Shown here: positions 13,782-41,116 of the stretch, piece after piece | How positions within the stretch are numbered: position 1 is the stretch's first letter | How the letters are laid out: each line of letters begins with the position of its first letter | Assembly (NCBI GenBank): GCA_044221525.1 | Contig: JBGAPB010000001.1 | Coordinates: 1,892 to 65,891, forward strand | Source: Blastocatellia bacterium | GTDB lineage: Bacteria; Acidobacteriota; Blastocatellia; RBC074 | Direction: 5' to 3' | DNA: 64,000 nucleotides | Notes under the pieces: model-generated | Seen by the model: only the letters and a program-made list of their open reading frames with translations | Database searches by the model: none | What the model was told of the DNA's origin: nothing | Translations under genes and position numbers: made by a program

Positions 13782-15131
13782 CTAAGCAGATTGCCTGCGT
13801 CTGATTTCGTCGAATAATTGCATGGTTTCTTTGCTTGGCATTATGTTGAGGTCGCGAATCAGGTTTTCGCGGCAATTATGGAATTGACGCAGCGCCAAGT
13901 GCGCATATCCCATCAAGTTGTAACATTGCATTAGCCGACGATGTAGCTCTTCGTTACAGGAATCCACAGCCAGCGCTTTGGAGCACATGGTTACGCACGT
14001 TTCGTAATTTTTCTGATCGAAGTAATAGCAGGACAGGCGATTCATCACGGCCAAATATGTGTCCTGATAGTTTTGTCTGATTGAAACCAGCCATTCCTCA
14101 TAACGATCCTCGACTAAAAACTCGCCCTGATAAATTGTTTCAGCCGCACGATATTCACGAATTGCCGCAGCCTGTTCTCCACGCGCCTCGCATTCTTTTG
14201 CCTTTTGAACGTGTGTTAAAAATGCTTCGGAATCAACCCAAATGTTGGCTTCCGGGTTGAGCAGATAACAGTCATCCTGAAATAGCACATAAGAAAAAGA
14301 GGTATTCACCTTGTTAAGTGATTTGCGCAGGCCATAGATAGCCACATTCAAATTGTTCCTGGCGGCGTCCGGGTCTCCTTCTGGCCAGAAGGCTTCCATT
14401 AAGACTTCTTTGGGAATGGGGCGTTGGCGATGTGTCACCAGATATTTGAAGATTGACTTACCCTTGCAATTTGGCCAGCCAATCACCGGTTGCTCGTCAA
14501 GAAGCACGCGGAATGGGCTTAGAAAGTAAACGGCGAGTGATGGGCGATTTATGGATTGGCTGTCGTCCGTCTCTTCGATGAATGTATCAGGTGTTTCAGT
14601 GTTGGCATTGGCAACCTGAACCACTGGTTGTTCGACGGCTCTTTCCACAACTGGTTTAGGGATTGGTGAAAAAGTTTTTGAATTTGGTGCAGGCCCCAGC
14701 AGGTCCTTAATACACTGCACAAGCCGTTCATACTTGGCAAGGTTGGCATTGAAAGGCTGGCTCAGGTCATTGTTGGAGCCATGAAGTAGATACTTATTGT
14801 TTTTGCCTCCTTCAGTTGGAGGGCTGATCATCTCGATTAGGGCATTGAGTTCCTGTAACAACTTAAGTTGTCGAAGGCTTGCTTTGGAATAAGCATCTCT
14901 GTGCCACTCGACTTCATCCCAGGCGCAACAACAAGCTCTGGATATCCGATAGGCTGCATCAATCATGCAAGCCAGGGATTCATTTCCTGAAAGTTCGCAA
15001 CTTGAACGAACTTCGTTAAGAAGTTCCGCGATGGCTTCATAGCGATAAGTTTTCGGCGCTTCTTCGTCCTTATGTCGCTGCAACGAAGTTTCAATGGTTG
15101 AGTCGGGGGGAATGTTATCTATGGCTATCAT
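13782..15131 (-). CDS. SARP-family (OmpR-like winged helix plus BTAD) transcriptional regulator with about 200-aa unknown N-terminal domain
   Basis: FRVLLDEQPV…LMEAFWPEGDPDAARNNLNVAIYGLRKSL winged helix, followed by a BTAD-like helical repeat region. Confidence 0.65.
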   Translation of the reverse strand: MIAIDNIPPDSTIETSLQRHKDEEAPKTYRYEAIAELLNEVRSSCELSGNESLACMIDAAYRISRACCCAWDEVEWHRDAYSKASLRQLKLLQELNALIEMISPPTEGGKNNKYLLHGSNNDLSQPFNANLAKYERLVQCIKDLLGPAPNSKTFSPIPKPVVERAVEQPVVQVANANTETPDTFIEETDDSQSINRPSLAVYFLSPFRVLLDEQPVIGWPNCKGKSIFKYLVTHRQRPIPKEVLMEAFWPEGDPDAARNNLNVAIYGLRKSLNKVNTSFSYVLFQDDCYLLNPEANIWVDSEAFLTHVQKAKECEARGEQAAAIREYRAAETIYQGEFLVEDRYEEWLVSIRQNYQDTYLAVMNRLSCYYFDQKNYETCVTMCSKALAVDSCNEELHRRLMQCYNLMGYAHLALRQFHNCRENLIRDLNIMPSKETMQLFDEIRRRQSA

Positions 15132-15688: not shown

Positions 15689-18600
15689 TTACCCTGTATC
15701 ACCTTCTATGCCGCTCATGGCTTCGTTGTTGATTGGCGGCTTATCTTCGATTCCGAAGTTCTTCTTCATGCGATCAAACAAATCTGTCAGGTCTTTCACA
15801 TCCTTCTTGCCTATGATTTTTTCAACGGCGGTTTCGCCAAGAGAGCGATAGCTCTCGAATTGCGATTCGCTGTACATCTGATCGCCAGTGGTTTCGTGGG
15901 GGAAGGTCGGGTTGTCTTTGGCATAGTTCAGTATATCTGGCGCTTCGGAACCATAGACTGTCGGTTTGATGTAAAGCAGCCAGCCGTTTACAGCTTCTTC
16001 GCCATCAACCGCCTTGTAATTGATTCGGGCCACCGAGCAGTATTGGCCATCGTCACTGCGCCCATCTTTGGTGAACAGCGACTCTGCTTTTATCCGTGGG
16101 CGGATTTTCAGTCTGTCATCGAACTCAATTGGCACGCCTTGATCAATTTGAATCTTCCTGATGGCGCCGCCCAAATCCTCAAAGCTGAAATCGTGGTCGG
16201 CGCTGGCGTCGCTCAGAACGATCAGGTGGCAACGGCGGCGAACCATTTCGTAAAGCCCAAGGTTTTCAAAATGCCCGCCATCCGAAAGATATATGTATTT
16301 GTGTTCGGCATCAGTCAAACCAAATGTTTCCGCCAGCAGATGAATTGGCGCAAAGCGAGGGCTTGAACGCTTGAATTGTTCTTTGCGTGGATTGCCCAGC
16401 CACCAGCCCAAGCGCACGTTGAACAGCGCCAGCAGAAAGGTGACCACTGGCGAAGAGTGATACCCCATGTTGGGACTGGCCGCCGCGCCGGAAATAGCCA
16501 GACAGGTTCCCAGTGAGATTGGTGGTGGGCCAGTTATGTCTGTAGCTCTGCCGCAACCATATTTTTCAGTCGGGCGATAACCAACCAGGCGGCTTCCAGC
16601 GTGTAGCGGAGAGAATGTGAAGGATTCGGCCTTGCGATCTTGCCAGGCCAGATTGCTGTCGGCCACCAAATTAAGCGCGGTGTTAATGACATGCAGAGGA
16701 TGCTGCAACGATGGGCTGATTTTCGATTCGCGCAGCCAGAACATTCTCAAGTTGTCGTCTTCGTCAAAGTTTGTAAATGGGTCTGGCCTCCGTTTGCCGT
16801 TTGTTCTTGAAGCCCCCAGGTAGGCACGAATCAACCGGTCGCGGTAAGCGCCGTGAAGCGAAAACTTGTTGATGTTGATAAACCAACCCGCTATTCCTCC
16901 AAAGGCCATCAGGACAATCGCGGCCAGCACCACAATGTGAGTCGGTGTGTGGTAAAGAACATTCAAGTGCCAGTTTCCGGCAACTGGAAACTGATCGTAC
17001 TTAGGCAAGTAATTCAGGTCGAAAGTGCCCAGTTTTAACAGCCAGTAATTGCCGGTCAGAACTTTGATTGCCAGATTTATCAATTCGCTCCCAGCCGCCA
17101 GTTTTTCCAATATGAACCGAAACATCCAACTGGTCACCAGCGAAAGTGAAACCAGAATGAATGCTGAAAACAAGGGTGCGGCAAAAGGCAACAATGCCTG
17201 GATCAAGTTTTCAGTCTGACTTGGTTTGTGGCCAGAGGCCTGTTTGTTTGCTGCGGTCTTGCCGCTCCACCCGCCCAGCAAAGTCAGCAGACCGGTCAAG
17301 GTGCCAATAGAAAAGAACGATCCTTTCACCATCGGCCCGTATTTGAGCAATAACCAAGGGCCGAAAATCACCAACGATCCGACCACGCTCCAAACCACAA
17401 TTGCTATCAATATCCAGGCGCCAGACCTTGCCAGCCATTCACGATCTGCGTCAGTCATAAAATCGCTGGCCAACCCTGTGTACATTGTTGCGGCAAGCAA
17501 AAGCACCAGCATGAAAAGTGGCGTCGCAAAGCAAACATAAGTCGCGGCATTTAGTGTAAGTGAGTCAAGATAGCCACCGGCCACTTTGGCAGACGGCTCC
17601 CCATATAGCGCCATACCTTCAAAAAAATCATGTTGACCAATGGCAACCGGCGGGAAGATAAAGATTTTTTTGGCGACAAGCCATAAGAAAGCTCCGCCAA
17701 CTGCACCGGTGATTGTGATGTAAAAAACATCCAGCCAACGAAACAGCTTTGATTTAATCGAACGGGCCAAGACCCAAAGCCTGGTTGAGAAGGATTTTTT
17801 TTCACTCAATTCGCTTTCATTGATGCACAGCAGTGAGAGCAGAAAACCTCCGAGATGCAACAGCACGCCGAAGCAGATAAAAATCCAAAACCAGTTCACT
17901 TTCTGGCACCAGCCAGTTTGACATCCGGGCAGATGCGCTCTCAGTTTGGTTTCGCTGACGTGAATCCACGCCCAGTGAATCGCGCTGGTGACGGAAACCG
18001 CCAAAAAAGGAAGTAGACACAAAATGACAAACCAGCTATCACCCAGAGGCACTGGCCAGATTCCAAGAAATTTTTGCCGGCTGCCAGATGTCGCTTTTGA
18101 TCCGGAACCAGGTCGGCAAACGATGACATAAGCAATCGGCAGGGTTCCGCAAGAAACACCCAGCCAAAATAAAATTTTGAATAGTGAATCGCTTGCACCG
18201 GCCCAATGGGCGACCGACATTCCCAAACGCGGAATTACCAGCATCCCCATCAGTAATGGCAATAACACCGACCAGTTCAACAGCAAATTGCGTAAAAATG
18301 TAGCCACCAGCGACCAGGTATCAGCCGACAATAAGCCTAACTTAGGGCTCATATAATTGCTGTATTGACGCAGGTGCGTGATTGGCTCAGGTTCGGGATT
18401 GAGCGCCGACTTGGGCTTGTTGGCGCCGGATGGTTTGCCGGATGTCGCCAGCGCGTTTTCGACGTTATCAACGCCTTGGTGGTAAATCCAGGCCGAAAGC
18501 CAACTGCCGATATATCCTCCGCCTGAAACAGTTGAAAGAAAGTTGAACTCTCTCAGTTTGACGCCCCGTCCGGTCAGCCCCTGTAAAACTCCCAGAGCAA

Positions 18601-18973
18601 AAGTTGCGCTGCGAATACCTCCGCCAGAAAAGCAGAGTGCGGTGCGTTTGATTTTGTGATGATGCAGAGCCTGATAAAAACTATTGGCCAGTTCGCCGGT
18701 TTTCTTCTCAAGATATCTGTGCTGCTCAACCGGCGAAGAAAATTCCTTCAGAGCTGTTTCTTCAAACTCCCTGCATATCTGCTCGATCTCGCCGGTGGTA
18801 AAAGTGATCTGACGACCAGATAGGTCACCGGTTAGCTTTTCTGGCCATGAAGGATTCAATCGTCGTTGATGCTCGAACTCTGCAACTAAAATTTCGACGA
18901 GTGTCAGCGGACGCCCGTCGGTTTCTTGCTGGCGATTGCTGGTTTGCTGATAGCTTTTTGTTTGGGGTTCCAT
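15689..18973 (-). CDS. Patatin-like phospholipase fused to a large polytopic membrane domain (1094 aa)
   Basis: CFSGGGIRSATFALGVL (GGGxR oxyanion hole) near the N-terminus, DGGHFENLGL catalytic Asp motif near the C-terminus; more than 10 predicted TM helices between. Confidence 0.8.
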   Translation of the reverse strand: MEPQTKSYQQTSNRQQETDGRPLTLVEILVAEFEHQRRLNPSWPEKLTGDLSGRQITFTTGEIEQICREFEETALKEFSSPVEQHRYLEKKTGELANSFYQALHHHKIKRTALCFSGGGIRSATFALGVLQGLTGRGVKLREFNFLSTVSGGGYIGSWLSAWIYHQGVDNVENALATSGKPSGANKPKSALNPEPEPITHLRQYSNYMSPKLGLLSADTWSLVATFLRNLLLNWSVLLPLLMGMLVIPRLGMSVAHWAGASDSLFKILFWLGVSCGTLPIAYVIVCRPGSGSKATSGSRQKFLGIWPVPLGDSWFVILCLLPFLAVSVTSAIHWAWIHVSETKLRAHLPGCQTGWCQKVNWFWIFICFGVLLHLGGFLLSLLCINESELSEKKSFSTRLWVLARSIKSKLFRWLDVFYITITGAVGGAFLWLVAKKIFIFPPVAIGQHDFFEGMALYGEPSAKVAGGYLDSLTLNAATYVCFATPLFMLVLLLAATMYTGLASDFMTDADREWLARSGAWILIAIVVWSVVGSLVIFGPWLLLKYGPMVKGSFFSIGTLTGLLTLLGGWSGKTAANKQASGHKPSQTENLIQALLPFAAPLFSAFILVSLSLVTSWMFRFILEKLAAGSELINLAIKVLTGNYWLLKLGTFDLNYLPKYDQFPVAGNWHLNVLYHTPTHIVVLAAIVLMAFGGIAGWFININKFSLHGAYRDRLIRAYLGASRTNGKRRPDPFTNFDEDDNLRMFWLRESKISPSLQHPLHVINTALNLVADSNLAWQDRKAESFTFSPLHAGSRLVGYRPTEKYGCGRATDITGPPPISLGTCLAISGAAASPNMGYHSSPVVTFLLALFNVRLGWWLGNPRKEQFKRSSPRFAPIHLLAETFGLTDAEHKYIYLSDGGHFENLGLYEMVRRRCHLIVLSDASADHDFSFEDLGGAIRKIQIDQGVPIEFDDRLKIRPRIKAESLFTKDGRSDDGQYCSVARINYKAVDGEEAVNGWLLYIKPTVYGSEAPDILNYAKDNPTFPHETTGDQMYSESQFESYRSLGETAVEKIIGKKDVKDLTDLFDRMKKNFGIEDKPPINNEAMSGIEGDTG

Positions 18974-27785: not shown

Positions 27786-27826
27786 ATAAAAAAGCCGCTG
27801 GCTTGTAAAGTCGGCGGCTTTTTTTG
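27786..27826. terminator. Bidirectional rho-independent terminator between convergent genes
   Basis: A-run, aagccgc…gcggctt stem, T7 run. Confidence 0.6.
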
Positions 27827-27841: not shown

Positions 27842-28711
27842 TCATCGTTTGATCGTGTAAGAATCAATGAGTTTGCCATCAGCGGCAATGGCTTCGATCT
27901 TCATTTCGTCTTCAGTCGCTTGAACAATCAAAAACGAATTAACCGAATCTTCTCCGAAAGCCATCAGCGGAGATTTGCGATCCAGAGTTCTCTTTTTTAT
28001 TTCACCGCTTGCGCCTTCAGTGAAGTAGTGGACGCCTTTTTGAGGCTTGGTGCGTTCGTAACAATGAGAATGGCCTGCGAAAACTGCGCTGACTCCGTAT
28101 TTGACGTAAAGCGGTTCCAATTGCGCGCGCAACTTGGTGTAAGGTGGATGCATTTTGGCCGATGAATAAATCGAATGGTGACTGAAGGCGATTTTCCACC
28201 TGGCTTTCGACGTTTTCAGCGATTCGTCCAGCCAGCCCAACTGCTTGTCATCCATCACGTTCGAATCCAGAGCGAAAAATTCCAGCAGGTTGTCGGCTTT
28301 GCCGAAGTTGTAATAACGCCGTCCGCCCATGTTGAAATTCTTGTAGTTGGTTTGAAACTCAGTTCCTTTGATGATGTCGTGGTTGCCCAACGAGGCGTAA
28401 AACTTCACTCCAGCGGCCAGTAATTCCTGGTAAGGCTGTTCGAAATGAGTGCCGATTTTTTCCTTCTCGCCTTTTTCGTAAATGTTGTCGCCGAGCATGA
28501 TGACAAACTCGAAAGGAGTTTTTTGTCGCTGTATGACCATTTGCCGTGCGACGGTTTTTTGAGCTTCATCGCCGCTGCCGGAATCGCCTATCACTGCAAA
28601 GATGACAGGAGCTTTGGCAGATGAATCCTGCGCTAAGCTCAATGCTGACAAACTGGCCGCGATGACCATTACTGCGACAGTTGCAGCGAGTTTGGAGACG
28701 ATGTTTTTCAT
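27842..28711 (-). CDS. Secreted calcineurin-like metallophosphoesterase
   Basis: GDSG…GDNIY…GNHD…GHSH motifs; signal peptide. Confidence 0.8.
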   Translation of the reverse strand: MKNIVSKLAATVAVMVIAASLSALSLAQDSSAKAPVIFAVIGDSGSGDEAQKTVARQMVIQRQKTPFEFVIMLGDNIYEKGEKEKIGTHFEQPYQELLAAGVKFYASLGNHDIIKGTEFQTNYKNFNMGGRRYYNFGKADNLLEFFALDSNVMDDKQLGWLDESLKTSKARWKIAFSHHSIYSSAKMHPPYTKLRAQLEPLYVKYGVSAVFAGHSHCYERTKPQKGVHYFTEGASGEIKKRTLDRKSPLMAFGEDSVNSFLIVQATEDEMKIEAIAADGKLIDSYTIKR

Positions 28712-28727: not shown

Positions 28728-29588
28728 TCAGATACCACCAGTTAAATCCTTGACCAGGTGGCCCCAGTCCATGACGAAAATCAGAAAAAAACTTTGGATT
28801 GCTTCCTTGTCGTCTGTTATCAATCCGACTTCGCGGCGCATATCGAGTTCCACTTTTCGCAAACTCTGGCTGCCGAAAAAGACCTGCTTGCCGTCGCGGA
28901 TGATTGTCTGAGTGTGCAAACGAATCAAAGGCATAGGGCGAATCTCAATGCCCTTGATTCGTTTGCTCATGGAGCCTATGACTTTGATTTCGACGCCGGC
29001 TTTGGCTCGTGCTTCCAGATGTTTGAGCATTTGCGAGTCACTCAGCTTGCTGTCGTAAATCAGCAATTGTTTTTCAGCACCAAGGATGAATGCGGAAAGT
29101 TTCTTGCGCGCGTTGATCGGACTGATGACAAAATGCTCTGCTTCGACTTTGTGGGACTTGCCGGCCACGTCGGCGTTGAATAGACGAACGGCTTCGGTAA
29201 CCAATTGTTTGTCTTCGGTGATAATGCCGAAACTTCGGCTGTGGTGAATGTCCAGAAAAGAGAAGTTGAAGGTCAGCAAGAACAACTGGCGACGATCAAC
29301 GATCATGACTTTGCTGTGGTAACGAACCAGGTCTTCGGCTGTGCGGGTGACTTTGACTTTGCGTTCTACCAGACGTTTTTCCAGCTTTTTGATTTCGCGC
29401 AAATCTTCTTTGTTGGTGTAAGTAATCAGCGCATGCACGCGAACACCACGCGCGGCGGCCAAGACAAGTGCCTGCTCTATCTCCAGCCGGTCCAGTCGGT
29501 AAATGACAATCTCTACGCTGTCTTTAGCCTGATTGATGCCTTCCAGCAACGGCGCTATGCCGTCGCGAGGTTGAATGATGAGGTGCAT
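28728..29588 (-). CDS. Phospholipase D-like (two HKD motifs) domain protein
   Basis: HSKVMIVD and HTQTIIRDGKQVFFGSQS. Confidence 0.7.
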   Translation of the reverse strand: MHLIIQPRDGIAPLLEGINQAKDSVEIVIYRLDRLEIEQALVLAAARGVRVHALITYTNKEDLREIKKLEKRLVERKVKVTRTAEDLVRYHSKVMIVDRRQLFLLTFNFSFLDIHHSRSFGIITEDKQLVTEAVRLFNADVAGKSHKVEAEHFVISPINARKKLSAFILGAEKQLLIYDSKLSDSQMLKHLEARAKAGVEIKVIGSMSKRIKGIEIRPMPLIRLHTQTIIRDGKQVFFGSQSLRKVELDMRREVGLITDDKEAIQSFFLIFVMDWGHLVKDLTGGI

Positions 29589-29668: not shown

Positions 29669-30715
29669 TTACCTTCCTACGGCGGATTTCAGTTCGTTGA
29701 TTTTCTGGCGTATTCGACGTGAAAAGCCTTCGACTTCGGCGGATGTCGCTCCAGCCGCTTTGAAAGCATCCCGAATCTGCGCGTCGGTCAACTGTCCAAT
29801 AATGCCCGCGAACCAGCGAGCGTGTTCGATAGGAATTGTTTTCAGGGAACTACTCATTTTGCCGCTGTAATGCAATTTGATTTGTCCGCCCGAAACTCCG
29901 TCCAAAAAAGCTTGTTTGTTGTAATCGTCCAAATCCCACTTGGAGTGCGAGGTGAAGCCGCCCATCTTGCCGAATGATCCGCCCCAGTCTGCTACCAGAT
30001 ACCAGTCAATGACTTTGCCGTTGTCGTCGAACATTCCAAGCACATTGTTGTTCGTAGCCTTGGCGTCCCAGTTGTTCAACAAAGTGTTAAGAATAGCCAG
30101 ACCGGACAATTCCTTTGTTCCCTTAAACGGATTGTTGTCCCATTCCCAGTTGATGGCGCGACGTGCAATATCGTCGGGGCGTTTTTCAAACATTCCATTG
30201 GTAAATGAGCCGTCCGAGCCGACGAATTTTTTGGCGCGGCCAAGACCGGTTACGCCGCTCACTTTGCCGGAAGGGATGAAGTAACTCTCTTCCACCATGT
30301 ACCCGCAAGCCCAGGCAATGCGGCTGGAAGCGACTTCAGCGTGAACTTCCTCGTCAAACTTGATGTTCCATTTGATGCCGTTGGCGTCAATGATTTTGAT
30401 CTTTGGATTGGTCCCGGTGATGTCTTCCTTGTCGAACTGGAAAGGCGGTTTAGGCATTTCATCAGGGCCGCCGATGCCATAAACCAGATTCAGCGAAGCG
30501 ATATTGCCTCTATCTTCCCACATCGCGGGCGTGCCGGCGGTAGTGGGCGCATTTGATGACTTAGCTTTTTTGCTCTTTTTACCGCTCTTTTTTTGTGGGC
30601 TGGCGCTAACCTTTGAGACGGGGAAAGATGACGAAACAAAAGCGCCAGCGATTGCCAGACAGATGGTCAAAGTAAAAGCGAACATTGCAGATAAACGATT
30701 GTACCGATAGTTCAT
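29669..30715 (-). CDS. Secreted hypothetical protein; possible atypical kinase-like region (LNNWDAKATNNN…DWGGSFG)
   Basis: Signal peptide, Lys/Ser-rich linker; the kinase-like call is inference only. Confidence 0.45.
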   Translation of the reverse strand: MNYRYNRLSAMFAFTLTICLAIAGAFVSSSFPVSKVSASPQKKSGKKSKKAKSSNAPTTAGTPAMWEDRGNIASLNLVYGIGGPDEMPKPPFQFDKEDITGTNPKIKIIDANGIKWNIKFDEEVHAEVASSRIAWACGYMVEESYFIPSGKVSGVTGLGRAKKFVGSDGSFTNGMFEKRPDDIARRAINWEWDNNPFKGTKELSGLAILNTLLNNWDAKATNNNVLGMFDDNGKVIDWYLVADWGGSFGKMGGFTSHSKWDLDDYNKQAFLDGVSGGQIKLHYSGKMSSSLKTIPIEHARWFAGIIGQLTDAQIRDAFKAAGATSAEVEGFSRRIRQKINELKSAVGR

Positions 30716-30850: not shown

Positions 30851-33409
30851 TTACTTCACATCCAAGTAATCCAATTTTAGATAGCTGCTGGCATCGCCGA
30901 CCAAAAACAGAAGCGGGCGTCCATTGATGATGGCAGCGGTTATCCCTTCGGGTTTGTATTTGGGACTGAGCGTCGCCTGTTCGCGCACTTTGGTTGAAAG
31001 TGCCTCGCCGTCCCATTCCCATAATTTGAACTCAGCTTTTTCAACGCCTTCTGGCGCGCCGGAAATGATCAGGAAAGATTTCAGATGCGCGTCATAAGTT
31101 ATGTCGCGCACTCCCTGACCGCCAAGCTGCAAAAAGATGACTCGCGGATTTTCGACCACCAGATTGTCGGCGTTGAACACCCCACGCGGGTCTTTCAAAC
31201 GCAGTGGAACCAAAACAGCTTGGGCGCCAACCAGTGAGCGCAATCCGACCACCAGTCGGTCACGCAATTTATCCCAGGCCAGGCCTTCGACATTCAAACC
31301 TCCCTGAGCGCTGGGAATTTCTCCCTGGCTTTTCAGTTCAGGGACTTTGCTTAGCAGCAAGCCGCGAAAGTCGTTGATGACTTCGGCTTGTCCGCGAAGC
31401 GTCTCTGTTTGCGGGTCGAATGCAAAACGCACGATGGCGTTGTCACCGCCCCAGGCTGCATCTGACAGCGAGCCGACAATGTAAAAGTGAGCGCCATCGT
31501 TGGTGATGGCTTCAGGGTTCTTGATTGTCACACCAAGCGGGATTGCTTTGGGAGCGCCGACTGGCTCACCTGCCGCGTTCAACTTCATTGCCAGAACGGC
31601 TCCCGGCTGACCATCGTCAACCATTAAAACCAAATCGCTCCCTGGAACGTGAGCCACACCGGAAGCTTCAATTGCCTTGCCTGGCAACGACGACCAGGAG
31701 TCGGAGCTAACGACCTTTGTGACGCTGGTTTTGATGTCGTTGATGACTTTGTCTTCTTTGCTGGGCATGAGCGCATATTTGGCTACAATCACTGACCCCA
31801 CTATACCCACAACTCCACCCAAAACCTGAGCGATGATGCGGCTCATGGCGTTAGCGCTGAAAAAACCGCCCTTGTCTTTGTCTTTCTTCTTTTTCTTCTT
31901 CTCGGATTTTTCTACTTCATCATCTTCGGCTGCGGTGACAACTTTTGAAGGGGGCACAGACCAGGAACTTGGATTCGTGGACGGCGCGGAAGCGACAGGG
32001 CCGCTTTTGAGTGCGGCGCGGCGACGAACGTCTTCCAAAGCTTCCAACGACAATCGAGCGGTTTTGTTTTCTGTGGTTTCAGCCGGATTACGGAAAGTCA
32101 GCATGACATTACCGAGTTGAATTTTGTCGCCATGTTGCAGCGTGTAAGCGTCTCCGCCTTGCCGGTTACCGTTGATAAACGTGCCATTGCTGCTGCCCAG
32201 ATCAACGATGGTGTAACCTCCGTCTCGTACGACGACGATGGCGTGTGTGCTGCTGACCGTTGGGTCATTGACCACCAGCTTGTTGTGCGGAGCTTTGCCG
32301 ATTTCGATTTCCGGCTGATTCAAAAGGGCTTCAATCTTTTCACCCGTTGGCATGACGCCGATCAATCGCGGTGTGAAGTGGTTGTCAATTTGTGCGGTAA
32401 TTTCGCTGGGCAAAGCCAATCTTAGCGAGGCTTTTTTGCCTGTGACGCGTTCGACTTCGTCAATTGTCGCTTTGTCAGTTGGGTCGGCAATGGCCAGCAT
32501 TAACTTGTCTGGCTGTTGACCGATGACAGGGCAAACCGAACGGCTTCGCAAAAAATCAACGCGCAATTTGGCTGCCGTCACGGCGTCAACTTCCATTGTT
32601 CTCATGTCAATTGGAACCAGATTGAAAGTGCGTCCAATCAAATCGCGCAAGCCGATTTCGCTGACCAATTTTTCTTCGGTCAAAGCCTGAAACAGTCTCC
32701 GGCTTTTTTTGCCTGGCGCGCCGACACCTTGCAGGCGACTAATTTCTGTTTGAGCTACAAGTCCGGCAGAAACCAGCGCTTGAGCCAGCGAGGCTTCAGT
32801 CATCGGAGGGGTCTTCGGTGTTGGCGGCGCCAACGGCGGCGGCGGCGGGGCGTTGTCCAGTAACACAGTGCGCGGGATTGATTGTGTGGTTTCGGCTTCT
32901 TTAATCCGGAAAGTGATCGCGCAATGTCCCATCTTGATCAAATCGCCGTGCTGCAATTTGCGCGATTCAGTGACACGGACTTCGTTGACAAAGGTTCCGT
33001 TGCGGCTTCCCAAATCGCTTAAGGTGAAGGCGTCATCGGCAAAACTGATCATGGCATGAGTTGATGACACAGAAGCGTCTGTCAAAACGATTTCGTTTTG
33101 AGGCCCTTTGCCGATTCTGGTTTCAGCGCCAGCCAGACCACGTTCAGTTACCAGGCCTTCGCGCGACAAAATGTGTAGAGTGGCCTCGATGGATTGGGTT
33201 TCTTTCTGGGGAGTTGTCATAGTTTTGAGCGCCGTGGCTTCCAACATATTCTTGGAAAGCGAATCTTTTGGCGGTGAAGATGGGGGCGATTCAAGTTGCA
33301 GATTCGGTTTACTTAAATCAAATGCTTGCAAATCAGCGCCGCATTGATTACAGAACCGGCTGCTTTCGCGCGGAACGGGGAAATTGCATTGAGGGCATTC
33401 ATTAATCAT
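30851..33409 (-). CDS. Multidomain signalling protein: Zn-ribbon–FHA–GspE_N/MshEN-like–FHA–TM–periplasmic domain
   Basis: CPQCNF…CNQCG; two FHA cores (…GRS/GSSNGTF…); LAQALVSAGLV…LAIADPTDKATIDEV T2SS-E N-domain pattern; one TM at about residue 520; K-rich tract. Confidence 0.7.
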   Translation of the reverse strand: MINECPQCNFPVPRESSRFCNQCGADLQAFDLSKPNLQLESPPSSPPKDSLSKNMLEATALKTMTTPQKETQSIEATLHILSREGLVTERGLAGAETRIGKGPQNEIVLTDASVSSTHAMISFADDAFTLSDLGSRNGTFVNEVRVTESRKLQHGDLIKMGHCAITFRIKEAETTQSIPRTVLLDNAPPPPPLAPPTPKTPPMTEASLAQALVSAGLVAQTEISRLQGVGAPGKKSRRLFQALTEEKLVSEIGLRDLIGRTFNLVPIDMRTMEVDAVTAAKLRVDFLRSRSVCPVIGQQPDKLMLAIADPTDKATIDEVERVTGKKASLRLALPSEITAQIDNHFTPRLIGVMPTGEKIEALLNQPEIEIGKAPHNKLVVNDPTVSSTHAIVVVRDGGYTIVDLGSSNGTFINGNRQGGDAYTLQHGDKIQLGNVMLTFRNPAETTENKTARLSLEALEDVRRRAALKSGPVASAPSTNPSSWSVPPSKVVTAAEDDEVEKSEKKKKKKDKDKGGFFSANAMSRIIAQVLGGVVGIVGSVIVAKYALMPSKEDKVINDIKTSVTKVVSSDSWSSLPGKAIEASGVAHVPGSDLVLMVDDGQPGAVLAMKLNAAGEPVGAPKAIPLGVTIKNPEAITNDGAHFYIVGSLSDAAWGGDNAIVRFAFDPQTETLRGQAEVINDFRGLLLSKVPELKSQGEIPSAQGGLNVEGLAWDKLRDRLVVGLRSLVGAQAVLVPLRLKDPRGVFNADNLVVENPRVIFLQLGGQGVRDITYDAHLKSFLIISGAPEGVEKAEFKLWEWDGEALSTKVREQATLSPKYKPEGITAAIINGRPLLFLVGDASSYLKLDYLDVK

Positions 33410-33644
33410 GCCAACTGAGGTGACTCGATTCGTATTCGAATGTGACGCCTGTTTGTTCGGCGATTTGAAGTTAATACTACTGTTGAAAACCGTGCGGGAT
33501 GCTAAATCAGTTTGCGAGCTAAATCAACGAGTTTGATTGGCGGCAACTTTACAGAACCGGTTTCGACTCGGCGGCGTAATGCGGATTCACTTTGCGCGGT
33601 TCCGAAAACGAACAGTTAAAATGACATCTGATATGGAAATCAAA

Positions 33645-34973
33645 ATGAAAAAGCTTACCCTTGCGGCGATGCTCGCCCTGATACTGGCAGCGAACTTTTG
33701 GGCACAGAATCCAGCTCGTCAGCCAGCGGTTGTCGGCGCTGTTCCGGCTCCTGAAAAAACGAAAGCTCATCGGAAATTTGGCGGCGGACTTTTGACATCG
33801 TTTGGCAGACGGTCAGGACAAACATTTCGACCCGACTTTGGGAGGGGTTGATTGGGAGAAAATCCGCCAGCAATACCAACCACAGGTCTCCGGGGTTAAA
33901 TCCGACGCCGAGCTTTATCGCCTGTTGCAACAGATGCTTGGCGAACTTCACCAATCGCATTTCAATATCATTCACTTCCAGCCTTAATCATCGCAGACAA
34001 TTATGTCGACCTCCAACCGGCGGCGCCGGGGCCTGATCTCAGAATGATTGACGGAGCAACGGTTATCACCAGAATTGAGCCGGGTTCAGCGGCTGAAAGC
34101 TCAGGCATGCTTCCTGGATTTGTGGTCAACCGGGTTGGCGATAAGACGGTTGAATCGCTGATTTCACCGCTGGCCAAAACGTTCAAAGACAAAGCGAAAA
34201 AAGTTGCAGATAGCTCTGAACGGGTGATGCGCGAAATAAATGGTGAACCAGGCACGACAGTCAAAATTGTTTATCTGGATGGCAAAGACCAAACGCACAC
34301 GGTTACTGTGACCCGCGCAAAGTTGAAGGGAGAGTTGTCGCCAAGGTTGGGTAATTTCCCGCCTCAATACACTGAATTTGAATCCAAAAGACTGGCTGGC
34401 AACATCGGTTACGTTCGTTTCAACATTTTTACGACACCAATTTCCGAAAAAGTCCGCTCGGCATTAGCTGAGCTAAAAGACGCAGATGGAATCATCTTCG
34501 ATTTGCGCGGCAATCCTGGCGGAGTCGCGGGAATTGCCACCGGCATTGCCAACAGGCTTTCGGACAAAGGCGGATTGTTGGGCACTATGAAGATGCGAAC
34601 AAGCGAAGTGAAATTCGCAATTTTTCCACAAACGAATGCTTACACCGGGCCGGTAGCGATTTTGATTGATGGCTTGAGCGCCTCGACCAGCGAGGTTTTT
34701 TCCAGCGGGATGCAAAATGGATTTGCTGGTCACCGTTCAAGGTCAGTGTCGGAGCTTACCTCACCGCTGGTCTTCGACTTCGACCAGCTCTTTCTGGTCG
34801 CCATCGCTGATTTCAAAACACCAAAAGGCATTTTGATCGAAGGACGCGGTGTCATTCCCGACGCCGAAGTTAAATGGAATCGCGCCAGCCTGTTGGCCGG
34901 ACGCGACGCACAGCTTGAAACTGCGATTGAGCGACTCGCCCAATCGCGCCAACGCGAACGCTCAGTCAAATGA
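33645..34973 (+). pseudogene. C-terminal-processing (S41) peptidase with PDZ domain; reading frame apparently interrupted twice
   Basis: ORF track places the signal peptide (33645-33851), S41 N-domain (33802-33987) and PDZ/catalytic part (34044-34973) in frames 0/1/0. Confidence 0.4.
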
Positions 34974-35040
34974 CGCTCGCATTCAACAATGTGAGAGCAG
35001 GCCGATGGGCTTGCCTCACGATCAGAAAGGATGAACGTTT

Positions 35041-35811
35041 ATGAAGAAATTTGCATTGATGATTGTGTTTGCGCTGATGGCAACTTTGTCAGTTGCGGCA
35101 CAGGAAAAGAAGGCTGACGCTCCGAAGGCCGATGCCAAACCAACGGCTGCTGCGATGCCTTCAGTTGACGAAATTCTGGACAAATACGTCAAGGCCAGCG
35201 GTGGCAAGGAAGCAATCCAGAAGGTGACTTCGCGCACTGCCAAGGGCACGTTCGAGATCGAATCAATGGGAATGACCGGCGGGTTTCAGAGCTTTGCCAA
35301 AGCTCCGAATAAAAGTGCCAGCATTATTGAAATTGGCGGTTTCGGCACAGTTAATAATGTTTTTGACGGCACAACAGGCTGGGACAGCAACCCACAAACC
35401 GGTTTGCGCGAATTGGCCGGTGAAGAGTTGGCCGCGAAAAAACAGGGCACGGATTTTTACCAAACGATCAATCTGAAATCCCACTATTCAAAGATGACCG
35501 TCAAAGGCAAAGAGAAAGTCGGGACGGCAGAAGCTTACGTGATTGAAGCTGTGCCGGCTGAAGGTAGCCCGGAAAAACTCTACTTCGATGTAGCTTCAGG
35601 TTTGCTGGTTCGTCTTGACACCGAACGTGATTCGCCGCAAGGCAAGATGGCCATCGAAGCTTATATGTCGGATTACAAACAGGTGGACGGAGTCAATATC
35701 CCCCACACGATGAAACAGGTTACACCGATGTTTTCCATGACCATTAAGATGGTGGAAATCAAACACAATGTCCCGGTCGAAGACGCGAAGTTTGCTAAAC
35801 CGGCAAACTAA
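35041..35811 (+). CDS. Secreted LolA-like / outer-membrane lipoprotein-sorting-fold protein (putative)
   Basis: Signal peptide, 256 aa; fold assignment is inference. Confidence 0.4.
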   Translation: MKKFALMIVFALMATLSVAAQEKKADAPKADAKPTAAAMPSVDEILDKYVKASGGKEAIQKVTSRTAKGTFEIESMGMTGGFQSFAKAPNKSASIIEIGGFGTVNNVFDGTTGWDSNPQTGLRELAGEELAAKKQGTDFYQTINLKSHYSKMTVKGKEKVGTAEAYVIEAVPAEGSPEKLYFDVASGLLVRLDTERDSPQGKMAIEAYMSDYKQVDGVNIPHTMKQVTPMFSMTIKMVEIKHNVPVEDAKFAKPAN

Positions 35812-40312: not shown

Positions 40313-41116
40313 ATGCTCGCAACAATTCAAACCCAACAAATTCACTCGATTCGCACAGGCAAGCTGGAAGTAAGGCTGGCTAGAACTATCACTGAACTTG
40401 ATGCGGCAATGAAGCTGCGCTTCGAGGTCTTCAACCTTGAATTGCAAGAGGGGTTGCGCTCTTCCTACGAACGTGGCTACGACACCGACGCTTATGATGC
40501 CTATTGCGATCACTTAATCGTTAAGGACTTGGAGCTTGGCGAAATTGTCGGCACTTACCGGTTGCTACAACAGAAAGTCGCAGACAAAAACATCGGCTTC
40601 TATTCAGAGAATGAGTTCGATCTGGAAATTCTGAAAAGCTCAGTAAAAGCTAAAGGCGGTGAACTTCTGGAACTTGGCCGTTCGTGCATTGCCGAATCGC
40701 ATCGCTCTTTCGCGACGATCAACCTGCTGTGGAGCGCGATTGTTCGTTATGCCGTTGAGCGCAGAATTACTCATCTGTTTGGTTGCGGCAGTCTTCATCT
40801 TACGGACACAAGCGAAGTTCAACAGGTTTATTCGTATCTGCGGGCTAAGCACCTGGCGGCGAAAGAATACAGCGTTTATCCGTTGGGCAGTTGCCGTATG
40901 GCTGTTGGAGAAGAAGCCGAGCCAGAGATTGATGCGCGTCTGGCAATTAAGAAGCTTTCGCCGATTCTGAAAGGTTATTTGCGAACCGGTGCGGTCATCT
41001 GCGGTGCTCCGGCCTATGACGCAGAGTTTGGCACGGCTGATGTGCTGGTGCTGGTCGAAGTTGCCAAGATGGCAGACCGTTATAAGCAGCATTATGCGAT
41101 GGCGGCTTGCCAATGA
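40313..41116 (+). CDS. GNAT-fold N-acyltransferase of the OlsB/hemolysin-like family (ornithine/amino-acid N-acyltransferase)
   Basis: LRFEVF…DAYDAYCDHLIV…GEIVGTYRLL pattern. Confidence 0.55.
   Translation: MLATIQTQQIHSIRTGKLEVRLARTITELDAAMKLRFEVFNLELQEGLRSSYERGYDTDAYDAYCDHLIVKDLELGEIVGTYRLLQQKVADKNIGFYSENEFDLEILKSSVKAKGGELLELGRSCIAESHRSFATINLLWSAIVRYAVERRITHLFGCGSLHLTDTSEVQQVYSYLRAKHLAAKEYSVYPLGSCRMAVGEEAEPEIDARLAIKKLSPILKGYLRTGAVICGAPAYDAEFGTADVLVLVEVAKMADRYKQHYAMAACQ

Follow-up and report, generated by a model that had tools for sequence, protein, structure and literature searches.

A membrane-spanning Blastocatellia protein with two FHA domains, an MshEN-like domain devoid of the c-di-GMP motif and a DUF3616 propeller, encoded in a conserved four-gene operon

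The analyzed stretch of DNA from a Blastocatellia bacterium, 64 kb in length and called the window in the following, contains four genes on the same strand with intergenic gaps of 16–135 bp. In the order of the operon they encode an 852 aa protein with two FHA domains, an unannotated protein of 348 aa, a PLD/PPK-C-like protein, and an exported metallophosphoesterase. The features of the locus are as follows, with the residue numbers of the 852 aa protein for its domains and the type of evidence in brackets:

27792..27804, minus strand: terminator-like hairpin with a T-run, immediately downstream of the last operon gene (terminator scan)
27842..28711, minus strand: exported metallophosphoesterase (Pfam Metallophos, weak PhoD match)
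28728..29588, minus strand: cytoplasmic PLD-superfamily protein with HSKVMIVD at residue 91 and HTQTIIRD at residue 225 (Pfam PLDc_2, PP_kinase_C_1)
29669..30715, minus strand: 348 aa protein with signal-peptide-like N-terminus, K/E/D-rich tail and predicted protein-kinase-like fold (AlphaFold2, Foldseek, invariant residues)
30851..33409, minus strand: whole gene of the Zn-ribbon-FHA-MshEN-like-FHA-TM-DUF3616 protein, 852 aa (ORF, Pfam, AlphaFold2, homologues)
30854..31702, minus strand: periplasmic DUF3616 beta-propeller, residues about 570–852 (Pfam, AlphaFold2, Foldseek, paralogues)
31772..31846, minus strand: single TM helix, residues about 522–546 (hydropathy, AlphaFold2 helix)
31865..31912, minus strand: Lys-rich juxtamembrane tract, residues 500–515, with the Lys tract proper at 503–513 (sequence; KKKKK conserved)
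32048..32089, minus strand: Thr-rich segment NPAETTENKTARLS, residues 441–454, directly after FHA2 (conservation)
32087..32365, minus strand: FHA domain 2, residues about 349–441, with G371-K372, S386, H389 and N408 (Pfam; OdhI/GarA alignment)
32366..32800, minus strand: MshEN/GSPII-like domain, residues 204–348 (Pfam; alignment with the PilB/XpsE/MshE N-domains)
32801..32854, minus strand: Pro-rich linker, residues 186–203 (sequence, pLDDT <50, prolines conserved)
32903..33187, minus strand: FHA domain 1, residues about 75–169, with G100-K101, S115, H118 and N137 (Pfam; GarA alignment)
33329..33397, minus strand: N-terminal Zn ribbon, residues 5–27, C5xxC8...C20xxC23 (Cys pattern)
33537..35811, plus strand: divergent syntenic pair encoding an S41 C-terminal-processing peptidase and a LolA-like protein (Pfam; synteny)

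The FHA protein is encoded by a single unbroken minus-strand ORF, which starts with ATG at 33409 and ends at 30851. It comprises, in this order, the Zn ribbon, the first FHA domain, the Pro-rich linker, the MshEN/GSPII-like domain, the second FHA domain, the Lys tract, the TM helix, and the DUF3616 beta-propeller. This domain order and an N-in/C-out topology had been proposed in an initial annotation, and both were borne out by Pfam, AlphaFold2 (AF2), and the distribution of hydropathy and charge. In the AF2 model, which has a mean pLDDT of 78.6, both FHA domains are confidently predicted sandwiches, the MshEN-like module is made up of a helical and an alpha/beta part, and the TM helix is followed by an all-beta domain at the C-terminus; the inter-domain arrangement is of low confidence (pTM 0.42). 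The lysine-rich tract and the one TM helix noticed earlier were both recovered: the segment of residues 525–543 has a mean Kyte-Doolittle value of 2.35, and 121 homologues contain on average 7.8 Lys and Arg in the 20 residues before the TM helix versus 2.1 in the 20 residues after it. For the proposed zinc ribbon, the four-Cys pattern held, with CxxC-x11-CxxC encoded at the N-terminus in 41 of 50 species-level orthologous loci, but the Pfam models PF13240/PF12773 scored only 13–19 bits, below their cut-offs of 25–27.3.

The same architecture is present in at least 120 clusters at 90% identity from about 50 species-level genomes. All carriers belong to the Acidobacteriota/Blastocatellia, and the proteins are annotated just as "DUF3616/FHA protein"; in many database homologues the annotated start is the internal Met64. 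The gene is a genuine, conserved gene for an uncharacterized membrane-spanning protein of soil Acidobacteria of the class Blastocatellia, and its operon locus is syntenic and vertically conserved. The fusion had been called uncommon, which is correct insofar as it is taxonomically restricted and only generically annotated, but it is not rare within its clade. Literature searches for a fusion of MshEN or T2SSE_N with FHA, also in combination with a DUF3616 propeller, returned nothing relevant, and no FHA fusion is listed in the main text or the supplement of Wang et al. (2016; PMC5013675). Paralogues that have a single FHA domain or consist of the propeller only are encoded outside of the operon.

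The three same-strand genes that had been seen downstream are present, and a comparison of 30 species-level loci revealed that the operon is kept: the PLD-like gene is found in all 30, the 348 aa gene in 28, and the phosphoesterase gene in 27 of them. In the lineage that lacks the latter two, the PLD-like gene adjoins the FHA gene with a gap of 8 bp. Look-ups that were begun from the 348 aa protein arrived at the same gene cluster. A promoter and terminator scan of the region yielded a total number of sites not above that of shuffled sequences; the hairpin at 27792..27804 is the only well-placed terminator-like site, and only its position is suggestive. Scanning the window with Rfam yielded no match. 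The divergent S41 peptidase and LolA-like genes are syntenic in 22/33 and 24/33 loci, respectively, and the peptidase gene is disrupted in the window. In about half of the lineages (about 13 loci), the operon is followed by PhoU-PhoB-PhoR genes, of which PhoU passes the TIGR02135 cut-off and the other two are PhoB-like and PhoR-like; they are absent from the 64 kb window, and their vicinity to the operon may simply reflect synteny between related genomes. In addition, the ornithine-lipid genes OlsB or OlsA are found upstream of the operon in many loci, in the window at 40313–41116. An anti-phage defense function, considered on the basis of PADLOC, was rejected, as just the PLD-like protein resembles a defense protein, DrmC, and the other three have no match.

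The HSKVMIVD and HTQTIIRD motifs of the PLD-like protein are conserved, and its scores with the NCBIfam models for NucT, DrmC, and PPK1-C are under the cut-offs. In the metallophosphoesterase, the signal peptide and all metallophosphoesterase motifs are conserved. The 348 aa protein belongs to a family with 65–97% identity and no annotation. It has no credible sequence match in Pfam, NCBIfam, or the PDB, with Pfam profile searches extended up to E 10, and only two of 54 family members touch HipA_C, with E=0.05. Its AF2 model (pLDDT 81.6, pTM 0.77) retrieved HipA, Fam20C, actin-fragmin kinase, and PI3K-like proteins as Foldseek top matches, all of them weak (E 3e-4 to 1e-2, TM 0.3–0.4). Invariant in the family are K119, E127, D217-x-K219-x-x-N222, and D243-W-G, and these residues are placed like the beta3 Lys, the alphaC Glu, the catalytic loop, and the DFG motif of kinases. 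The likeness to HipA, Fam20C, and actin-fragmin kinase lies in the predicted fold and in the invariant kinase-type residues, whereas the differences are the lack of detectable sequence homology, the weak structural scores, and a probable export of the 348 aa protein. The N-termini of about 30 homologues have the classic n-h-c organization of signal peptides with an AxA-type site, which suggests that the protein is probably exported. A cytoplasmic membrane-anchored kinase, with the Lys-rich tract following the hydrophobic segment, was also considered, but the signal peptide argues otherwise. If the protein is cleavably exported, it would be periplasmic and, therefore, unable to feed the cytoplasmic FHA domains. 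The initial annotation had listed it simply as a secreted protein, but it is better termed an unannotated kinase-fold protein.

The extracytoplasmic end of the FHA protein was expected to be a periplasmic beta-rich domain of about 300 aa, and the AF2 model indeed has an all-beta domain of 20 predicted strands at residues about 570–852, with pLDDT values mostly >90. The DUF3616 profile PF12275 matches residues 686–803 with 34.6 bits (cut-off 20.6), covering only profile positions 147–263 of 327, and the match is also present in homologues. A Foldseek search with the full-length model against the PDB was dominated by FHA matches and retrieved, for this domain, only beta-propellers of the generic WD40 type, without functional resolution. 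The propeller is 45–55% identical to abundant stand-alone exported DUF3616 paralogues of the same class, from which it differs in being membrane-tethered and fused to a cytoplasmic signaling region. Like DUF3616/Phytase-like (PF12275/PF13449) proteins, the domain passes the DUF3616 cut-off, and some family members also match Phytase-like PF13449 (below cut-off) and SdiA-regulated PF06977. Acidic residues at the blade starts are invariant, i.e., the E and D in EASG, PEAIT, NxEGxAWD, RDITYD, and KPEG. These matches and residues, together with the neighboring exported metallophosphoesterase, PhoU-PhoBR, and OlsBA, would fit a phosphate-scavenging module with the propeller as its business end, either with a Ca-dependent phosphoesterase activity of the phytase type or by sensing organophosphates or another ligand, while the FHA/MshEN part regulates it or relays signals from the outside to the inside. 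However, the partial coverage of the DUF3616 profile, the sub-threshold Phytase-like matches, and the occurrence of stand-alone paralogues outside of phosphate-related contexts render this explanation rather unlikely, and the literature found to mention DUF3616 contains neither an assigned function nor defined catalytic residues.

Both FHA domains were recovered by profile and by predicted fold. Pfam FHA (PF00498) matches twice with E=1.6e-40 and 137.8 bits versus a gathering cut-off of 20.7, FHA2 aligns with OdhI/GarA with E=2.7e-13, and the AF2 FHA fold superimposes on the FHA domains of GarA/OdhI with a Foldseek TM of about 0.85–0.94 and an rmsd of 1.3 A. The canonical pThr pocket consists of G69, R70, S85, H88, and N107 in the numbering of Rad53 FHA1. 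Four of these five residues are retained in each of the two domains: Gly, Ser, His, and Asn are strictly invariant, in FHA1 across 74 sequences, and are shared with GarA/OdhI. In place of the phosphate-binding Arg, both domains have an invariant Lys (K101, K372; in FHA1 the GR of GarA is GK), and both contain Ser-Thr where GarA/OdhI carry Arg-Arg. The protein differs from GarA/OdhI also in having two FHA domains. Of the claim of a phospho-Thr-binding FHA pair, the two domains and four pocket residues stand, but, because Lys replaces the canonical Arg, pThr binding by FHA1 and FHA2 is plausible and predicted rather than assured. The family has conserved Thr segments downstream of each FHA domain. 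T445 and T450 do not vary in the segment after FHA2, NPAETTENKTARLS, and T450-x-x-L453 is compatible with a pTxxL FHA ligand, so that the segment is a candidate phospho-site. It contains ETT and lies next to FHA2, which, as we presume, recalls the ETTS phospho-switch motif of GarA/OdhI.

The exchange of Arg for Lys in both pockets and the loss of the second basic residue could also mean that the FHA domains mediate interactions independently of phosphorylation, like that of YscD, and that the protein constitutively anchors the PLD-like enzyme to the membrane. In line with this, no Hanks-type kinase and no PP2C phosphatase are encoded in the operon or the 64 kb window, and of the three partners only the PLD-like gene is never missing, and it is directly adjacent in the lineage without the other two. 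Nevertheless, the strict invariance of the other four pocket residues in both domains, the ability of a Lys to still contact phosphate, and the conserved Thr segments behind each FHA domain make such an anchor quite improbable.

An FHA domain, one TM helix, and an extracytoplasmic domain are also the common layout of FipA, TagH, SctD, and GltG. Together with a Pfam Yop-YscD_cpl match of 113 bits, with NCBIfam matches over the FHA parts, and with the derivation of MshEN from T2SS/T4P ATPases, this could indicate a structural subunit of a trans-envelope machine, a ring or anchor component of the SctD/YscD, TagH, or GltG type, in which the GspE-N-like domain docks an ATPase platform. However, the equivalog scores are all under cut-off and cover the FHA fold alone: T3SS SctD/YscD TIGR02500 reached 16 bits versus 86, T6SS TagH TIGR03354 106.2 versus 120.25 (FHA part only), GltG NF033760 93.8 versus 650, and FhaB-FipA NF049868 112.9 versus 125. 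No T3SS or T6SS genes are nearby, neither the conserved neighborhood of about 40 loci nor the rest of the window contains a gene for an ATPase, secretin, platform, or baseplate component, and the AF2 model shows a compact propeller and no ring-building domains on the periplasmic side. A role in such a machine is very unlikely.

The assignment of the central domain as MshEN-type was corroborated, as PF05157 matches residues 265–345 with 43.7 bits (cut-off 23.1) and both subdomains align with PilB, XpsE, and MshE. Over their full length, residues 198–347 can be aligned with the N-terminal MshEN region of PilB (5zfr/5tsg; PilB 13–157) with E of about 1e-6, and also with XpsE-N (2d27, E=9e-5) and MshEN (5htl). 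The N-terminal helical subdomain contains two degenerate 24-residue motifs at 207–230 and 238–261, in which the two helical hairpins are separated by a short spacer as in MshE/PilB, and residues 263–348 form the C-terminal alpha/beta subdomain. The motif has been defined by Wang et al. (2016; PMC5013675) in a strict form, RLGxx(L/V/I)(L/V/I)xxG(L/V/I/F)(L/V/I)xxxxLxxxLxxQ, and in a relaxed form, [RKPN]hGxxhhxx[GAS]hhxxxxhxxxhxx[QNKRYWST]. None of the 121 family members matches the tandem motif in either form, and the c-di-GMP input that had been thought possible was not upheld. In motif I, Arg1 is replaced by S/A, Gly3 by Ala, and Gln24 by G/D; in motif II, Gly3 is replaced by C/Y/A/F, the turn Gly10 by K/N, and Gln24 by Thr, and all these replacements are conserved. 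Comparable or smaller deviations abolish c-di-GMP binding in XpsE (PMC5013675) and in PilF GSPII-A (PMC12002112). In contrast to MshE/PilB, from which it also differs in its position between two FHA domains and in having no secretion ATPase attached, the domain looks like one without the residues needed for c-di-GMP binding. That it nevertheless binds c-di-GMP and gates FHA-mediated signaling to the periplasmic domain is extremely unlikely in view of these substitutions, in spite of the real homology, the preserved hairpins, and the precedent of high-affinity receptors among MshEN domains fused to non-ATPase partners (PMC5013675), for which NfrB is a reported example (PMC8669469). In fold, degenerate motif, and presumed protein-protein docking, it resembles the c-di-GMP-blind N-domains of GspE/XpsE (N1, 2D27) and PilF GSPII-A, the difference being that no GspL/PilM-like partner or ATPase is encoded nearby.

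GspE-N1 binds the cytoplasmic domain of GspL, and the MshEN/GSPII-like module with its lost c-di-GMP pocket would probably serve protein-protein interaction in the same manner as GspE/XpsE N1 with GspL/XpsL. Together with the Zn ribbon, FHA1, and FHA2, it may constitute a cytoplasmic docking platform, in which the FHA domains most likely bind pThr sites, either on partners or in the protein's own conserved Thr segments. The Lys-rich tract and the TM helix would join this platform to the periplasmic propeller. The other three products of the operon are all predicted phosphoryl-transfer enzymes: the kinase-fold protein, which is probably exported, the PLD/PPK-C-like protein in the cytoplasm, and the exported metallophosphoesterase. 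The protein, as a scaffold, would organize or regulate these enzymes at the two sides of the membrane. The frequent proximity of PhoU-PhoB-PhoR and ornithine-lipid genes leads us to infer that the process served could be phosphate-ester or envelope-lipid metabolism. A transmembrane scaffold that reads Ser/Thr phosphorylation, as suggested initially, is reasonable in view of the domain order and topology. We tentatively favor a c-di-GMP-independent, probably pThr-dependent, single-pass inner-membrane scaffold that links the phosphoryl-transfer enzymes of the operon across the inner membrane. A more far-reaching interpretation, which we regard as doubtful, is that the four genes represent a previously undescribed, Blastocatellia-specific trans-membrane phospho-signaling/phosphoryl-transfer module with the dual-FHA scaffold organizing an unannotated kinase-fold enzyme family, a PLD/PPK-C-like phosphotransferase, and the exported metallophosphoesterase at both faces of the inner membrane, an MshEN domain re-purposed from c-di-GMP sensing to docking, and a function in the turnover of envelope phospholipids or organophosphates under the control of the Pho regulon.

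The FHA protein is a natural example of an MshEN/GSPII domain outside of the secretion-ATPase context that has lost the c-di-GMP motif. A Pfam MshEN match alone would over-call c-di-GMP receptors, which matters for genome-wide counts. The most interesting feature of the FHA protein is the tight four-gene operon, and the more valuable by-product is the 348 aa partner, which represents a highly conserved unannotated family with a predicted kinase-like fold. Signaling is almost unexplored in the Acidobacteria, which rank among the most abundant bacteria in soil. The conserved, single-copy, operon-embedded FHA protein offers an entry point to a Ser/Thr-phospho-dependent control of envelope or phosphate metabolism in Blastocatellia.

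The FHA protein, a product of 852 aa, is encoded by a single open reading frame that runs on the minus strand from an ATG start at 33409 to 30851. Pfam detected two FHA domains, which score 137.8 bits (cut-off 20.7). Residues 265-345 match MshEN (T2SSE_N) with 43.7 bits (cut-off 23.1), and residues 686-803 match DUF3616 with 34.6 bits (cut-off 20.6). In a search of the PDB sequences, residues 198-347 aligned over the full length with the N-terminal MshEN region of PilB from Geobacter (5zfr/5tsg, E about 1e-6), and also with XpsE-N (2d27) and MshEN of V. cholerae (5htl). Therefore, both MshEN subdomains are present there, the N-terminal helical hairpins and the alpha/beta C-subdomain, the latter being the part that Pfam picks up. 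The protein further contains a lysine tract (residues 503-513) and a single hydrophobic helix (residues 525-543), which obeys the positive-inside rule: averaged over 121 homologues, the flanking 20 residues contain 7.8 Lys plus Arg before versus 2.1 after the helix. An AlphaFold2 model based on a 74-sequence alignment had a mean pLDDT of 78.6, with values mostly above 85-90 in the domains and with disordered linkers; its C-terminal domain is all-beta with 20 strands, and the Foldseek matches are beta-propellers. The N-terminus is inside and the C-terminus outside, with the propeller in the periplasm, and the cytoplasmic region is of the docking type. The architecture proposed in the initial annotation, including the MshEN-type central domain, the lysine-rich tract and the periplasmic beta-rich domain, is thus borne out. 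As to its N-terminal zinc ribbon, two CxxC knuckles are present (C5/C8 and C20/C23), and the zinc ribbon models of Pfam score under the cut-off.

Neighbourhood look-ups started from the FHA protein and from the 348-aa protein, quantified by tblastn of species-level loci, revealed a tight same-strand block of four genes. The features of the window are:

30851-33409, minus strand, FHA protein (first gene of the operon)
30854-31702, minus strand, propeller part of the FHA protein
29669-30715, minus strand, 348-aa protein (second gene)
28728-29588, minus strand, PLD-like protein (third gene)
27842-28711, minus strand, metallophosphoesterase (fourth gene)
27804-27792, terminator-like hairpin
33537-34973, plus strand, S41 C-terminal-processing peptidase gene, divergent from the operon
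40313-41116, plus strand, OlsB-like gene
15689-18973, minus strand, 1094-aa protein
13782-15131, minus strand, SARP-type regulator

The intergenic gaps of the operon are 135, 80 and 16 bp, and the sole terminator-like hairpin in a suitable position lies after the last gene. In 30 loci the downstream sequence is 3.5 kb or longer; among them, the phospholipase D and phosphoesterase genes that had been pointed out downstream in the same orientation recur in 30 and 27 loci, respectively, and the gene for the 348-aa protein in 28. In one lineage the genes for the 348-aa protein and the phosphoesterase are missing, and the PLD-like gene is only 8 bp away from the FHA gene. Paralogues that have a single FHA domain or consist of the propeller alone map outside the operon. 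Upstream, the divergent genes encode an S41 peptidase and a LolA-like protein, which occur in 22 and 24 of 33 loci, respectively. Compared with the 465-aa orthologue in the species-level locus L006, the S41 gene of the window is disrupted by two in-frame stops near 33849-33900 and by out-of-frame stretches near both ends; the longest intact open reading frame (34044-34973) comprises 309 aa, and the gene is either a pseudogene or affected by assembly indels. Elsewhere in the window, the only match of the 1094-aa protein is a marginal one to a patatin-like phospholipase at its N-terminus, and the adjacent SARP-type regulator (Trans_reg_C and BTAD) is EmbR/AfsR-like without an FHA domain.

The 348-aa protein had no match in Pfam, NCBIfam or the PDB sequences. 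It is better conserved than the FHA protein, with 65-97% identity across Blastocatellia. With its AlphaFold2 model (pLDDT 81.6, pTM 0.77) as the query, Foldseek ranked HipA, Fam20C, actin-fragmin kinase and PI3K-like kinases highest, with weak scores (E 3e-4 to 1e-2, TM 0.3-0.4). The residues K119, E127, D217-A-K219-x-x-N222 and D243-W-G are invariant and have the predicted layout of an active protein-kinase-like enzyme. The N-terminus exhibits an n-h-c organisation in which an AxA-type site precedes a conserved (S/A)PQK; a K/E/D-rich tail comes next. We are inclined to read it as the cleavable signal peptide of an exported protein, although it may instead be an N-out/C-in anchor, because a strongly basic tail follows the hydrophobic segment. 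The 348-aa protein is the secreted protein that the initial annotation placed after the FHA gene. Judged from the model, the 348-aa protein may represent a new exported family with a predicted kinase fold. The PLD-like protein lacks a signal peptide and is cytoplasmic; it contains one canonical HxK(x)4D motif and a second, family-wide conserved HxQ(x)4D motif, and it resembles the NucT and DrmC nucleases and the C1-C2 domains of PPK1, with all scores under the cut-offs. The metallophosphoesterase has a signal peptide and the full set of catalytic motifs.

Alignment with OdhI/GarA and the conservation within the family revealed that the pockets of both FHA domains are invariant (Gly100, Ser115, His118 and Asn137 in FHA1; Gly371, Ser386, His389 and Asn408 in FHA2). 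In either domain the Arg that contacts the phosphate is replaced by Lys without exception (K101, K372), and GarA/OdhI have "SRRH" whereas the FHA protein has "SSTH". The two domains may plausibly bind pThr. Conserved Thr-containing segments directly follow FHA1 ("KEAxDTLSxPRT") and FHA2 ("NPAETTENKTARLS"). In the latter T445 and T450 are invariant, and T450-x-x-L453 fits a pTxxL ligand. Both are candidates for FHA ligands, be it within one molecule or between molecules, and may resemble the ETTS switch of GarA/OdhI.

The FHA protein is a conserved operon partner of three predicted phosphoryl-transfer enzymes, of which one is cytoplasmic, one exported and one probably exported. Our preferred, though tentative, reading is that it would be a transmembrane scaffold that unites or regulates these enzymes. 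On the cytoplasmic side it would rely on FHA contacts that depend on pThr and on a protein interface of the MshEN type, and on the outer side on the propeller. The process served may be the turnover of phosphate esters or envelope lipids, which is hinted at by two of the operon products (the PLD-like protein and the phosphoesterase) and by the neighbouring Pho and ornithine-lipid genes. OlsB/OlsA-like genes are located upstream in many loci, among them the window (OlsB-like, 40313-41116) and L001 (6668-8451), with scores under the equivalog cut-offs. The operon is followed by genes for PhoU, which exceeds the cut-off of TIGR02135, for a regulator similar to PhoB and for a PhoR/PnpS-like kinase in some 13 species loci and about half of the lineages. 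Pho genes and a dUTPase gene are found downstream on the same strand in L001, L007, L013, L023, L029, L030, L032-L034, L042, L045, L049, L054, L058 and L088; the PhoU/PhoB/PhoR/dUTPase set is absent from the window. As an alternative to the scaffold, the protein could centre on the propeller and act as an enzyme or sensor in phosphate scavenging, which is unlikely. Phospho-independent anchoring of the PLD-like enzyme by the FHA protein is quite improbable. It is very improbable that the FHA protein forms part of a secretion, pilus or gliding machine, because every equivalog score is under the cut-off and machine genes were not found nearby.

The two tandem 24-residue c-di-GMP motifs and a relaxed search pattern have been defined by Wang et al. 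(2016; PMC5013675). None of the 121 family members matches the strict or the relaxed form, and the possible c-di-GMP link via the MshEN domain is not supported. In motif I (207-230) the stacking Arg has given way to S/A and the Gly of RLG to Ala (109 of 121), with G/D in place of the terminal Gln. Motif II (238-261) has retained Arg-Leu and contains C/Y/A/F at the Gly, K/N at the turn Gly, and Thr at the Gln (118 of 121). Comparable substitutions have been held responsible for the lack of c-di-GMP binding by XpsE (PMC5013675), and small deviations from the motif suffice to prevent binding by GSPII-A of PilF (PMC12002112). By its sequence the domain has lost the c-di-GMP pocket, and a c-di-GMP receptor is extremely improbable. 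The replacing residues are themselves highly conserved across the family, which suggests that the domain is under selection for another function. By analogy, protein-protein docking is the most plausible one, as for the N1 domain of GspE, which serves protein-protein docking in type II secretion.

A word-indexed search of 5.8 billion proteins yielded 400 matches. The best 120 clusters were 50-100% identical to the query, stemmed from Acidobacteriota/Blastocatellia, and were named merely "DUF3616 domain-containing protein" or "FHA protein"; all but two also matched DUF3616, the exceptions P0029 and P0032 being truncated or partial. When 1.84 billion 50%-identity representatives were scanned exhaustively with HMMER, about 12 full-length representatives were retrieved, together with the Pfam-confirmed variants Zn-MshEN-FHA-TM-propeller, FHA-TM-DUF3616 and MshEN-FHA and with many stand-alone exported DUF3616 proteins; all representatives with a source name were from Blastocatellia or Acidobacteriota. 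In 185,579 species-representative genomes about 50 loci with a full-length relative were found, all in Acidobacteriota. The fusion had been called uncommon, which is true for its restriction to this group and its generic names; within the group it is recurrent, with at least 120 clusters and about 50 loci. Metagenome-assembled genome records named 'uncultured Heliomicrobium sp.' or 'Heliobacteriaceae bacterium', i.e., with Firmicutes names, carry a Blastocatellia-type operon with 52-85% identity (L010, L013, L015, L022, L024, L025, L030, L036, L038, L045, L047 and L056). These labels are probably wrong, because the proteins are 66-85% identical to those of Blastocatellia. The zinc ribbon is seemingly absent from about 60% of the database proteins, yet 41 of 50 loci have the coding sequence for it in frame further upstream; the short versions mostly represent start-codon calls at the conserved Met64. 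It is truly missing in four lineages. The propeller shares 45-55% identity with the stand-alone exported DUF3616 proteins of 310-350 aa that abound in Blastocatellia/Pyrinomonadaceae (e.g., P0268, P0405 and P0410), which suggests a lineage-specific expansion of DUF3616, one copy of which would then have been fused to the FHA-MshEN-FHA module.

Every domain of the FHA protein belongs to a known family, and its layout is like that of the FHA-TM-periplasmic scaffolds FipA, TagH, SctD and GltG. Literature searches on the FHA protein did not yield any publication. For the possible c-di-GMP/pThr integrator of the initial annotation, the c-di-GMP half is not supported and the pThr half is plausible. 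This weakens the original headline, and the operon and the unannotated partner family restore some value. What is new is this particular set of domains in one protein, together with the re-purposed MshEN domain and a conserved operon that includes an unannotated family of predicted kinase fold.
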